Below, piece by piece: positions 2,671 through 8,444 of a stretch of 64,000 nt of DNA. The stretch is from a bacterium (GTDB lineage Bacteria > UBA8248). The notes below the pieces were generated by a model that was given only the letters and a program-made list of their open reading frames with translations, made no database searches and was not told where the DNA came from. The stretch is taken from contig OZ241326.1 of the NCBI GenBank assembly GCA_965199855.1, positions 1,248,001-1,312,000 on the forward strand, in the 5' to 3' direction. Position 1 is the stretch's first letter. Every line of letters starts with the position of its first letter. The position numbers and the translations under genes are program-made.

Positions 2671-3252
2671 GCCCCGCTTTCCGCGCTGAAATTGCCCCGT
2701 CAAAATGCTCCACGCGGAACATCGCCGCGCATTTGCCCGCAACTGCCCGCATTTGCGAGGCGGAGGCGGCGCCGGGGTCGGGTTATATTCCCGGTGCGGC
2801 GGAAGTGCGCCTCCGGGGGGAGGGAAAGCGGGCGAATCGGGGAGCGGGCGGGATGGTCAAAGGGGTCTCTAAGGGGTGGAAAAAGGCCGGAAAACAGCTG
2901 CGTATTTGTCTATATTGGCCTTGAATTTGTCTGTTTTTGTCGAAATTCGCGGGAATTCATCGGAGCGGGCGGGCGGGGCTTCCGAATCCCTGAAGGCGCG
3001 CCCTCATCCCGTGAATTCCCGGGCGGGGCCGGAGGGCGAGAAACGCCTCCGGAATATGGAGCGGCTCGGCGAAGCCCGCAGGGGGCGGCCCCTCCTCGGC
3101 GGACGTTGCGCCTTGCCCGGCGCCTTCTGGATGTGTCATAAGAATGAAAACAGAGATTCCGGGAGCGCCGCGCGCAGGCTTCTCCACCTCCTCTTGCCGG
3201 GGTTCAACGGCGAGGCGGAATCCATCTTTTCTGAGCGGGAGAGAGGGCTGAT

Positions 3253-5352: not shown

Positions 5353-6504
5353 ATGGACTTCGAGCTCAGCGAGACCCAGCGGCTCATCAGGGAGACGGCG
5401 GCGGACTTCGCCCGGACGCGCATCGCCCCCGTCGCGCGCGAGAACGACGCCGAGGAGCGCTTCCCCGCGGACGTCGTGCGGGAGATGGGGACGCTTGGAA
5501 TGTTCGGCGGGCCCGTTCCCGAGGAATACGGCGGGGCGGGGCTGGACTACGTCTCCTACGCCATTCTGAACGAGGAGATCAGCAAGGCGTGCAGCTCGGT
5601 GCGCACCGTCCTCTCGGTGCAGCTCTCCCTCGTCGCGACCACCATCCTGAAATGGGGGAGCGAGGCGCAGAAGAGAAAGTATCTGCCCAGGCTCTGCTCG
5701 GCGGAGTGGCTCGGCTGCTTCGGCCTCACCGAGCCGGACGCGGGCTCGGACGCGCAGAGCCTCAAGACCTTCGCGGAGAAGACGGCGGACGGCTGGAGGC
5801 TGAACGGGCAGAAGATATGGATCAGCAACGGCGGGGTGGCGCGGCTCGCGCTCGTCGTCGCGCAGACGGATCGGGAAAATCCCCGGAAGATGGCGGCGTT
5901 TCTGGTGGAAACCGACAGCGTGGGCTTCGAGGCGAAGTCGATGCGCGGGAAGCTCGGGCTTCGCAGCTCGAACACGGCGGAGCTTTTCCTGGCGAACGTG
6001 GAGGTTCCCGACGAGGCGCTGCTGGGCCGGGTGGGCGACGGCTTCAAGGTGGCGATGAGCGCGCTGGACAACGGGCGCTATTCGGTGGGCGCGGGCTGTC
6101 TGGGAATCGCGCAGGGCTCGCTCGAGGCCTCCGTCGCCTACGCGAAGGAGCGCCGCGCGTTCGGCAAGCCCATCGCGGCGCATCAGCTCGTGCAGGACAT
6201 GATCGCCCGCATGGTGGTGGACGTCGAGGCGAGCAGGCTTCTGCTCTACCGGGCGGGGGAGCTCAAGAACGCGGGGCGGCCGAACGCGCGCGAGACCAGC
6301 ATCGCCAAGTACTACTGCAGCGAGGCGGCGCTGCGCTGCGCGAACGACGCCATCCAGATTCACGGGGGCATGGGCTACAGCAGCGAGTATCCCGCCGAGC
6401 GCTACATGCGCGACGCCCGCGTGGCGACCATCTACGAGGGAACCAGCCAGATTCAGAAGCTCATCATCGCCGGCCACGAAACCGGAATCCGCGCGTTTTC
6501 CTAG
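5353..6504 (+). CDS. Acyl-CoA dehydrogenase (short-chain type)
   Basis: FGLTEPDAGSD, LNGQKIWISNG, QIHGGMGY, IYEGTSQIQ. Confidence 0.95.
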   Translation: MDFELSETQRLIRETAADFARTRIAPVARENDAEERFPADVVREMGTLGMFGGPVPEEYGGAGLDYVSYAILNEEISKACSSVRTVLSVQLSLVATTILKWGSEAQKRKYLPRLCSAEWLGCFGLTEPDAGSDAQSLKTFAEKTADGWRLNGQKIWISNGGVARLALVVAQTDRENPRKMAAFLVETDSVGFEAKSMRGKLGLRSSNTAELFLANVEVPDEALLGRVGDGFKVAMSALDNGRYSVGAGCLGIAQGSLEASVAYAKERRAFGKPIAAHQLVQDMIARMVVDVEASRLLLYRAGELKNAGRPNARETSIAKYYCSEAALRCANDAIQIHGGMGYSSEYPAERYMRDARVATIYEGTSQIQKLIIAGHETGIRAFS

Positions 6505-6544
6505 GGGCGGACGCCGCCGGCTCGCTGGTTTTTCCATGTTGTGC

Positions 6545-6573
6545 TTGGTGAAGCTGAAAATCCATTATATCAT
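6545..6573 (+). promoter_or_regulatory. Candidate sigma70-type promoter for the low-GC cassette
   Basis: TTGGTG-N17-TATCAT at the left edge of the low-GC segment. Confidence 0.35.
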
Positions 6574-6674
6574 TGCCTATACATTCCCATTGCAATTTTC
6601 TAAACTTCGAGAGTGGCGACTCCCGGGTGGAGGAGTTCCGTCCGAAACTGGAGCGAAAAGGGGGTGATGACGCT

Positions 6675-7289
6675 GTGTTGCATGTGAGCAGCTTCGTATT
6701 TGCCGGGAATTTCCCGGAAAATATGTTTGACGAACGAGAATTGTTTGATGGAAGGATCGATCCTGGAGGACGCCTTCACGCCGGTCCAGTCCTGCAATGC
6801 TCGTATGCGGGCGGAGTGTATCAATTCCATGCCATGCCGGATCGAATTGATCTGAGAGCGAACACGCCGAACATTATGCCCGATACCCTTATCGAGGCGG
6901 GTCAATTTATAGCCAAACAACTCGACGATGTAAAGCGAGCCGTCAAGGTTTCAGGCTTTGGAATGAATTGTGATACCATTTTTGATCAACATTTGATTCG
7001 CGCCAAGGGGCGTGACTATTGCTTTAACTTATTGGCTGGACACAAAATGAGGGCAATCGTTGACTCAGAAATTACCAATCCTCTCTCAAGAGTGCAATTC
7101 ATAAAAGGCGCAATGCGCTATGATGTGCGGATTGAGCCTCACTTTCAATCTGAGGGCAACAATTTGTTTGTGGCCGTGAACGGTCATCAAAATATCAGCG
7201 CGCAAGACTCCCTGGGTGAAAGGCTCCAATACACAGACGCTTTCAGGGAATATGTCGAAGGATTGCATCGGCGTGTTCTAAAGACTTGA
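6675..7289 (+). CDS. Hypothetical protein, gene 1 of low-GC cassette (TIGR04255-like, by recall)
   Basis: ORF 6573..7289; GTG 6675 preferred because of the AAAGGGGGTG RBS; AT-rich third positions; SFVFAGNF...GFGMN...RIEP...VNGH pattern. Confidence 0.7.
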   Translation: MLHVSSFVFAGNFPENMFDERELFDGRIDPGGRLHAGPVLQCSYAGGVYQFHAMPDRIDLRANTPNIMPDTLIEAGQFIAKQLDDVKRAVKVSGFGMNCDTIFDQHLIRAKGRDYCFNLLAGHKMRAIVDSEITNPLSRVQFIKGAMRYDVRIEPHFQSEGNNLFVAVNGHQNISAQDSLGERLQYTDAFREYVEGLHRRVLKT

Positions 7290-7302
7290 AGGAGCGAATG
7301 AT

Positions 7303-7866
7303 ATGGAAACGGCGGTTGCGTCAACGACATCTCGGGATAGCAATGCAGAATCAGGGCCTCGCAATCATGGGCTTACGCTGGCATTGCATAAACTATACCA
7401 AGATGAGCGCGCTCCAGAATACAAAGGGGAATTAAGTCGTCTCCTTTGTGAGGCTTCTCAACCAAAGCAAGATGCTGTCCAGATTCCTGAATACATTTTT
7501 GAGCGCGAATCCCTCAAGCAAGAAGTCAACGAACTTCTTGAAAGCGCCGGGTCAGAAAACTGGGACGGCGAGGGCGCTCTTGCGATTACGCCCGGTCTTG
7601 TCGGGATTGCGCATGAGGTCATCGAGAAATTGCCGATATACGCCGCCAAACCTGATGTCGAGGCTACGCCGCACGGCGAGATCGATTTCGATTGGGTCGT
7701 CGATCAGAATACGATGCTCACCGTCAGCGTGGCGCCTCCAAATGTAGTCGCATTCGCAGGTACGTTTCCAGAAGCGCGTCTTGCGGGCAAGGAAGAGTGG
7801 GCAGGCGAACTTCCCCATTTCGTAGAGTGTTGTCTTAAGCGAATCAAGCAAATCGGGAAACTGTAA
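7303..7866 (+). CDS. Hypothetical protein, gene 2 of low-GC cassette (NWDGEGA...PTPHGEIDFDW family)
   Basis: AAGGAG RBS; starts 13 nt after gene 1; low-complexity N-terminus and globular C-terminal domain. Confidence 0.8.
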   Translation: METAVASTTSRDSNAESGPRNHGLTLALHKLYQDERAPEYKGELSRLLCEASQPKQDAVQIPEYIFERESLKQEVNELLESAGSENWDGEGALAITPGLVGIAHEVIEKLPIYAAKPDVEATPHGEIDFDWVVDQNTMLTVSVAPPNVVAFAGTFPEARLAGKEEWAGELPHFVECCLKRIKQIGKL

Positions 7867-7869
7867 TAT

Positions 7870-8258
7870 ATGGCCTCCCGAGCGGAGGGTTCGCTTGCTC
7901 GGTTTGCGGTGGAAAGCGGACGCTTCGGCCCTCGACTGTAAAGCCGAAACTCTTTGAGCCCAACAGAAACCTTGAGCTATCCGTGTTTGGCATCGGAGGG
8001 CTTGTCTGCGCGGAGGTACGGGATTTGGGCATTGCCGTTGCGCGACGGCATCCAACGGCCCGCCAACTCCATGGCTGGGGAGAAATATCCGAGGAAGCGG
8101 TGGCCAGTGCGGAACTTGATATTGAGTATGACAACCAACCTGAACGTCATGCCAACATAACCGGCTGGCCCGAAGATATAGAGGAACGAAAGCTGAAGCA
8201 GCAACTTTTAGCAAGCCGCGCGCATCCGGTGAAGTTTGATTCACCGATCCCGGTATAA
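7870..8258 (+). pseudogene. Frameshifted small protein, gene 3 of cassette (candidate ADP-ribosyltransferase-like toxin)
   Basis: ATG 7870 reads MASRAEGSLARFAVESGRFGP and stops at 7939-7941; the -1 frame continues STVKPKLFEPNRNLELSVF...RHANITGWP to TAA 8258; one extra C in CCC 7929-7931 would give a single ORF of about 129 aa. Confidence 0.65.
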
Positions 8259-8444
8259 TTCCCGAACCGGTCGTTGTTTGTCATGGAGCGGATGATTGCG
8301 AAATTCGCTTTCCGGCGTTCGCTCCACTCCCCGCGCCGTTGGCGCGCATTCTCTGGGCTTGGCCTTGAAAACCCCTTGAAATTCGCCCCGGAACGGGGTA
8401 AGGCTCATCCGGAGCCGGAATTTCACGGCGAGGGGGGGGCGCTC

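Follow-up and report, generated by a model that had tools for sequence, protein, structure and literature searches.

What do the three tightly packed genes encode that interrupt, with unusually low guanine-plus-cytosine (GC) content, the region upstream of the glycine cleavage operon of a bacterium of the lineage UBA8248, and how did they come to lie there? The DNA analyzed (the window) comprises 64,000 nucleotides of contig OZ241326.1 (assembly GCA_965199855.1, positions 1,248,001 to 1,312,000 of the forward strand). The genes, here called g1, g2 and g3, are located on its plus strand in an inserted island of 1.86 kb (∼6506-8368). A first-pass annotation, made from the letters and open reading frames (ORFs) of the window, had proposed a tripartite toxin/antitoxin/chaperone-type defence module. 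On balance, the cassette is probably an uncharacterised mobile toxin-antitoxin module with an accessory gene, possibly serving in defence, which is decaying in this genome.

Three genes in a fixed order in distant taxa

The three genes are co-oriented and tightly packed, as had been noticed in the first-pass annotation, and all of them have real homologues. The gaps of 13 nt between g1 and g2 (stop 7289, ATG 7303) and of 3 nt between g2 and g3 (stop 7866, ATG 7870) were as previously given, and in relatives neighbouring genes overlap by up to 4 nt or are separated by up to 13 nt. A scan with the g1 alignment, in which one genome per species was used, resulted in 10 loci from Binatia, Alpha- and Gammaproteobacteria, Dehalococcoidia, Rhodobacterales-type metagenome-assembled genomes and Pseudomonadales. 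In seven of these 10 loci g1, g2 and g3 are colinear, in one case (L002) with a truncated g3, and the co-occurrence on which the earlier proposal depended was thus found, in the same order, across phyla. In metagenome loci anchored on g3, g2 is positioned directly upstream in four of four and g1 is present in three; the fourth locus begins at the first base of its contig. The cassette therefore has the layout of a type II toxin-antitoxin system, i.e., small genes that are adjacent, co-oriented and only a few nucleotides apart, with a linkage retained in different taxa. Also in several other genomes the GC content of the cassette is below that of its surroundings, and its neighbours vary by locus, which argues that the cassette moves as a unit of ∼2 kb.

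The three window proteins gave no match in Pfam, NCBIfam, PADLOC (PADLOC-DB v2.0.0, E ≤ 1) or PHROGs, and no member of the g1, g2 and g3 family alignments matched a family library. PDB sequence searches with four profiles returned nothing under E 0.6, and only unnamed clusters were retrieved from the ESM Atlas. The cassette had been put forward as an uncharacterised system, and indeed no named system was matched in these libraries. No title or abstract describing it was found in the literature, and supplementary tables of defence-system surveys may list it.

Predicted fold and conserved residues of g3

The intact form of g3 was modelled from an 18-sequence alignment with a predicted local distance difference test (pLDDT) score of 94.8. 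The model has an ADP-ribosyltransferase (ART) fold, a split beta-sheet with an NAD+ cleft, and is closest to the NAD+ lobe of Tpt1/KptA. The ART-like fold that had been suspected for the third gene is thereby supported as a high-confidence prediction. Foldseek searches with this model resulted in weak matches only, among them TreTu and Tpt1/KptA, and in no match at E ≤ 0.001 in PDB or viral models. In structural alignments, g3 aligned solely to residues ∼90-181 of solved Tpt1/KptA chains, with 10-12% identity.

A first homologue search identified 18 unnamed clusters for g3. When 1.84 billion representative proteins were searched with a g3 profile, at least 2011 clusters (50% identity) had E ≤ 1e-3; 631 clusters reached E ≤ 1e-10 and 18 reached E ≤ 1e-30. 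Nearly all members have a length of ∼120-160 aa. Neither the 18 close nor the 104 diverse members gave a meaningful match in Pfam or NCBIfam.

Conserved columns were counted in 104 of the best 150 family members and are numbered according to P0001, an intact 129-aa homologue. R11 was present in 104/104 members, S38 in 102/104, H94, W100 and P31 each in 103/104, and E72 in 33/104. The R...S...H series picked out in the first-pass annotation thus consists of the best-conserved polar residues of the family, and the motifs quoted together with it contain conserved columns. In the ART fold, strands 1, 2 and 5 carry the three ART motifs; as placed by the strand order of the model, R11, S38 and H94 are located on these strands. 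In a published classification, recognised ART clades are distinguished by the active-site profiles H-H-h, H-Y-[EDQ] and R-S-E (PMC9503650). The R-S-H profile of g3 matches none of these, and the third motif has no conserved acidic residue. Therefore, g3 might have an unusual chemistry or be a non-catalytic protein.

The reading frame of g3 is interrupted in the window

The first-pass annotation had given ∼129 aa for the third gene; an intact ORF of this length could not be recovered from the window. The 5' part of g3 (7870-7941, plus strand) starts at ATG 7870, follows the correct frame up to a deletion site after 7929, and then runs out of frame into a stop at 7939-7941. The 3' part (7930-8258, plus strand), which encodes the LSVF and RHANITGWP motifs and ends with a stop at 8256-8258, is found in another frame that is open over 7839-8258. 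This 3' frame is 99% identical to P0001, and the first 20 residues of the window g3 are those of P0001 as well. The stretch ...GRFGASTVKP... of P0001 corresponds to ...GRFGPRL* in the window, and therefore one base is absent from the window at this position.

Contigs of four public runs (X1, X3, X4, and X7) were compared with the window over 6400-8500. X4 and X7, which originate from two different studies, contain one extra G behind 7929, resulting in a single 129-aa frame, in addition to 16 and 24 other differences from the window, respectively. X1 (depth 98, near-identical and probably the window's own source) and X3 (depth 2, from a third study) have the window's reading at 7929. Because X1 and X3 share the window's reading and X4 and X7 are intact, the 1-base deletion is most likely a real allele of the strain, with close strains keeping the intact gene. 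An assembly error is unlikely, with the limit that X1 may itself be the source of the window and that X3 has a depth of 2 only. A programmed frameshift was also considered and rejected, since near-identical alleles are plainly in frame.

Interrupted g3 genes were identified at two further loci. The truncated homologue in L002 (7315-7479) covers profile positions 1-48 only, and the homologue in L053 is split into two frames (2712-3127, oriented coordinates). At all three loci with a broken g3 (window, L002, and L053), g1 and g2 or the other upstream genes are open, as would fit a g3 that imposes a cost unless it is kept in check. The cassette of the window is probably silent or decaying, its putative effector gene having been inactivated by the 1-bp deletion.

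g2 as candidate antitoxin

The candidate antitoxin gene g2 (7303-7866, plus strand) encodes a protein of 187 aa and is preceded by AGGAG 8 nt before its ATG. Its 51 homologue clusters are unnamed and without a Pfam domain. The proteins consist of a variable N-terminal part of ∼60 residues, which differs in both length and sequence, and a conserved C-terminal domain of ∼125 aa, which alone aligns across the family. Invariant in the family are N86, W87, D88, A92, P123, H124, G125, E126, D128, F129, and D130; the motifs NWDGEGA and TPHGEIDFDW, quoted earlier for the second gene, coincide with these invariant columns. In every canonical locus with room, g2 is located directly 5' of the g3 homologue. 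Co-folding of g1, g2 (residues 58-187) and g3 as partner resulted in values of 0.87, 0.87 and 0.88. A control in which g1 was replaced by an unrelated protein also gave 0.87, which may reflect the retained chain, and controls in which the partner g3 was replaced gave 0.00 and 0.01; by the rule of the tool, these values speak neither for nor against binding.

More distant cassettes were identified as well. L026 and L029 contain g2-like/g3-like pairs without a first gene. L029 is a second, distant pair in the genome of the window (G000:C1:117724-121119), in which no g1-type gene is present. It consists of a g2-like gene (1035-1487) and a g3-like gene (1396-1914, with the motif ...NPHHADIVLP...), and is adjoined, on the opposite strand, by a GmrSD_N gene of the DUF262 restriction type (Pfam E 1.3e-26). 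L027 (genome G010) and L028 (genome G038), both from the genus of the window, consist of a first gene of 237-249 aa without a family match, followed by a g2-like and then a g3-like gene. Their g3-like genes were recovered with the A4 profile at E ∼1e-11. Downstream in L027, on the minus strand, there are what look by eye like a helix-turn-helix/metallopeptidase gene and a HigB-like gene. In profile-profile comparisons of the g2-like proteins of L026-L029 with g2, an E-value of 0.0013 at a probability of 18% was obtained, which is suggestive only.

The first gene and its replacement by TIGR04255

The first gene, g1 (6675-7289, plus strand), belongs to an unnamed family with 66 homologue clusters and is a candidate accessory, sensor or regulator. 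The ORF as listed starts at TTG 6573; homologues of ∼209 aa align from GTG 6675, and by eye a purine-rich AAAGGGGGT was found 9 nt upstream of this GTG. From this start the protein has 204 aa, the length that the first-pass annotation had given. The model of g1 (pLDDT 93.4) consists of two halves, each of a beta-sheet plus helix, i.e., a duplicated fold. The twice-repeated, beta-rich pattern described beforehand is therefore seen in the predicted secondary structure; sequence self-comparison did not show an internal repeat (blastp E 14, hhalign E 0.17).

The best structural resemblances of g1 were to the catalytic domain of McsB/phosphagen kinases, to AdoMetDC and to TBP. The Foldseek match to TBP had an E-value of 3e-5, but a template modelling score of only ∼0.3. 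Compared with the McsB/phosphagen (guanidino) kinase domain g1 is shorter, has 5-9% identity and matches no family model. SecB is not among the structural matches listed for g1, nor was there a match in PADLOC, Pfam or NCBIfam, and the SecB-like fold that had been suggested for the first gene is thus unsupported. R21, R57, D59, N98, C99, D100, R152, E154, H171, Q172, and R200 are invariant or nearly invariant polar residues of the family. So many conserved polar positions suggest a site for ligand binding or catalysis, and speak less for a passive chaperone.

The first-pass annotation had also considered that g1 may be a TIGR04255-like protein. The TIGR04255 model of NCBIfam matched none of 32 sequences at E ≤ 1 (g1 and 31 aligned relatives), and the positive control, the L025 protein, scored 131.7 bits at a curated cut-off of 30 bits. 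Comparison of the g1 and TIGR04255 family alignments using hhalign gave E 0.0074 at a probability of 5%. What held of this suggestion is the position. In L025, from a genome of the window's class, a genuine TIGR04255 gene (E 3.9e-38) takes the place of g1 and is followed by homologues of g2 (E 1.3e-21) and g3 (E 2.1e-39). TIGR04255 proteins thus resemble g1 in their first position in the cassette, similar size and sporadic distribution, and differ from it by family membership.

A survey of TIGR04255 in 401 Pseudomonadota genomes identified 32 positive genomes, and 30 loci (L035-L064) were examined. By hidden Markov models, g2 and g3 follow directly in 6/30 loci, and blastp clustering placed a g2-like gene downstream in 7/30. 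Other loci encode proteins of ∼110-129 and ∼190-232 aa (6/30), a protein of ∼214-233 aa (4/30), proteins of ∼210-250 and ∼205-308 aa (4/30) or a further recurrent pair (2/30). With at least five recurrent types of downstream module, TIGR04255 thus appears to be a head gene that alternative modules have in common, and g1 holds its place in the clade of the window. Counting the type found in L027, the first position is filled by mutually dissimilar proteins (g1, TIGR04255, and L027 type), between which no similarity was detectable.

The surroundings of TIGR04255 genes were also viewed in two annotated plasmid records. On a Crinalium plasmid the gene is near those for an HNH endonuclease, a ParB-N protein and a DNA methyltransferase, and on a Thermus plasmid near VapBC, a methylase and Cas6. 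These neighbourhoods are defence-like or toxin-antitoxin-like, and are anecdotes from two records rather than a measure of enrichment. A PDB sequence search with the TIGR04255 profile gave no match, and no mention of the family was found in the literature searched.

Insertion of the cassette upstream of gcvT

To define the island, 6000-8800 was used as query against 31 genomes, i.e., the genome of the window and 30 relatives. Both flanks were matched in 18/18 same-genus genomes, and the island part was matched in the genome of the window only. In six of seven same-genus loci that were aligned the site is empty, with the flanks 69-95 bp apart and no island between them; in the seventh the right flank is located on a separate contig. 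Same-genus matches stop at ∼6504/6505 and resume at ∼8368/8369, where the right edge is given by a conserved AAACCCTTGAAATTC element that precedes gcvT. From these flank alignments and the AAACCCTTGAAATTC element, the inserted segment was delimited to ∼6506-8368, between the stop of an acyl-CoA dehydrogenase gene (6504) and the conserved upstream region of gcvT. The low GC content noticed earlier was reproduced, with 0.43-0.57 over roughly 6450-8250 versus 0.64-0.77 in the flanks. Judged by these alignments and the drop in GC, the island is a recent, horizontally acquired insertion next to the glycine cleavage operon. The genome contains a single copy of g1.

The ORF list of the island contains no integrase or transposase, in agreement with the earlier description. 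Neither direct or inverted repeats in the flanks nor a duplicated target site or terminal repeats could be recognised convincingly. A promoter of its own, which had also been proposed, could not be confirmed: a consensus scan gave no site on the plus strand and two sites in total versus 1.6 expected by chance, and neither promoter-like nor terminator-like sites in the island exceeded the shuffled expectation. An Rfam scan of 6400-8600 resulted in no match at E ≤ 1, and thus in no glycine riboswitch.

Judged by eye from the translations, the genes to the left of the island encode a thiolase, a 3-hydroxyacyl-CoA dehydrogenase and the acyl-CoA dehydrogenase that ends at 6504, and those to the right are gcvT (probable ATG 8445), gcvH and gcvP. 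In a poly-G tract (8430-8437) just before the probable start of gcvT, X4 and X7 have one G fewer than the window, X1 and X3. The tract is located in what is likely the ribosome-binding region of gcvT, and its variable length may reflect either a difference between strains or a sequencing artefact. On the minus strand, an antisense ORF of 230 aa (7552-8244) overlaps g2 and g3. It was taken as a by-product of the coding strand, because the homologues recovered belong to the plus-strand frames.

Discussion

If the cassette is a toxin-antitoxin module with an accessory gene, g3 would be its effector, a minimal stand-alone ART-fold protein of 129 aa that most likely uses NAD+. It would ADP-ribosylate a cellular target, either nucleic acid or protein, or consume NAD+, upon which growth would stop. 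The cognate neutraliser would be g2, translationally coupled just 5' of g3, with the conserved C-terminal domain holding g3 and the variable N-terminal part being regulated or labile. An accessory role as sensor or regulator would fall to g1, in the position that TIGR04255 takes in sister cassettes. Modules of this kind usually act as addiction or abortive-infection (anti-phage) devices, and a similar role might be assumed here.

Several observations weigh against this reading. Three of the g1-anchored loci (L008-L010) contain g1 without a detectable g2 or g3. L008 and L010 have only divergent g2/g3 look-alikes, which gave E-values of 8e-4 and 3.5e-3 at low probability when compared with g3 by hhalign, and other genes are found downstream of g1 in L009. 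For the divergent look-alikes in general, the family libraries were blank apart from the TIGR04255 and GmrSD_N matches described for L025 and L029. The collections of phages, plasmids and viral contigs that were searched yielded no relative of g1 or g3, neither by tblastn of g1 against plasmids and phages, nor by tblastn of a proteobacterial g3 homologue against plasmids, nor by scanning viral contigs with the alignments A1 and A2. Searches of Pfam, NCBIfam, PADLOC, PHROGs and PDB sequences gave no sequence-level link to a proven toxin, and the closest relatives by fold, Tpt1/KptA, are repair enzymes rather than toxins. Moreover, g3 does not have the catalytic Glu/Asp/Gln of the macromolecule-modifying ART clades and could be non-catalytic or have a different chemistry. 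Finally, the broken copy in the window allows no claim on function in the present organism.

An ordinary two-gene toxin-antitoxin pair of g2 and g3, with g1 as a co-transferred neighbour or a regulator without a sensing or chaperone role, would account for the pairs without a first gene in L026 and L029 and for the dissimilar proteins that fill the first position. This explanation is rather unlikely, since g1 is retained in fixed order and with tight spacing in 7/10 g1-anchored loci and in 3/3 g3-anchored loci with room, and has many invariant polar residues, including R57, N98, R152 and E154. Furthermore, heading at least five recurrent module types, as TIGR04255 does, is the behaviour of a functional partner. 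A wider proposal, to which similarly little credence is given, is that g1- and TIGR04255-type proteins are a widespread, promiscuous first component that governs many different toxin-antitoxin pairs; tripartite conflict systems of this kind would form a new class alongside the SecB-based toxin-antitoxin-chaperone (TAC) systems. The hub, with a guanidino-kinase/McsB-like cradle fold, would then be an enzyme or ligand sensor, a clade of R-S-H, NAD+-using ARTs would be among the effectors, and the hub might, for example, mark or release the variable N-terminal part of the antitoxin.

It is less likely still that the cassette is no conflict system and belongs to an NAD+-dependent nucleic-acid end-processing or metabolite pathway. 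In that case g3 would act like the NAD+ lobe of Tpt1/KptA, which it resembles most closely in fold, by transferring ADP-ribosyl to phosphate, and g1, with its kinase/ligase-like cradle, and g2 would handle the substrate. However, g3 does not contain the N-terminal RNA-binding lobe of Tpt1 and aligns with residues ∼90-181 only. The distribution is sporadic and transfer-driven, as a 2-kb low-GC island in unrelated phyla, g3 is broken in three loci, and one related pair is located beside a restriction-type gene, which together fit selfish or defence modules better than housekeeping repair. That g3 is a secreted interbacterial toxin, like Tse2 or the ARTs at Rhs tips, with g2 as immunity protein, is very improbable, as g3 is a stand-alone protein of 129 aa to which no delivery domain is attached, the gene of the putative immunity protein precedes it with translational coupling, and the island contains three genes only.

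The toxin-antitoxin-plus-accessory reading was also compared with known systems. No match of g3 to CmdT or other known TAC toxin families was found at E ≤ 1 in PADLOC-DB v2.0.0, which we take to include a CmdT model. CmdTAC is a toxin-antitoxin-chaperone anti-phage system with an mRNA ADP-ribosyltransferase and shares with the proposed layout of the cassette three co-transcribed genes, an ART-fold effector, a partly unstructured neutraliser of middle size and a third, controlling protein (PMC11618068). The unstructured domain of CmdA is C-terminal and CmdT has a catalytic Tyr (Y41), whereas the variable part of g2 is N-terminal and g3 has the conserved R-S-H (PMC11618068). The gene order also differs, being putative accessory, neutraliser, effector in the cassette, which matches no PADLOC model and for whose g1 SecB is not among the fold matches listed. 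The likeness to CmdTAC thus appears to be architectural only.

Tpt1/KptA proteins have an N-terminal RNA-binding lobe. Their active-site profile is H-H-h (clade name according to PMC9503650) rather than R-S-H; the 129-aa g3 has no such lobe, no family-model match and no sequence similarity to them, and is found in a mobile three-gene cassette. DarT (DarTG), RES (Xre-RES, MbcTA) and ParT (ParST) are ART-fold toxins of toxin-antitoxin systems. In contrast to these systems, the cassette contains no macrodomain, Xre helix-turn-helix or ParS-like antitoxin and has a third gene, and g3 has no sequence relationship to the three toxins and other conserved residues.

For the present genome the message is modest: a recent foreign insertion, of which the putative effector gene is already inactivated. 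If the proposed reading is true, it would provide the first functional context for three unannotated families, of which that of g3 is large, and would also give a context to TIGR04255, a long-orphaned family of NCBIfam, as the head gene that several alternative two-gene modules share. With an effector of ART fold and R-S-H profile, the range of active sites known from NAD+-using toxins would be widened, and a new target or chemistry could come to light.

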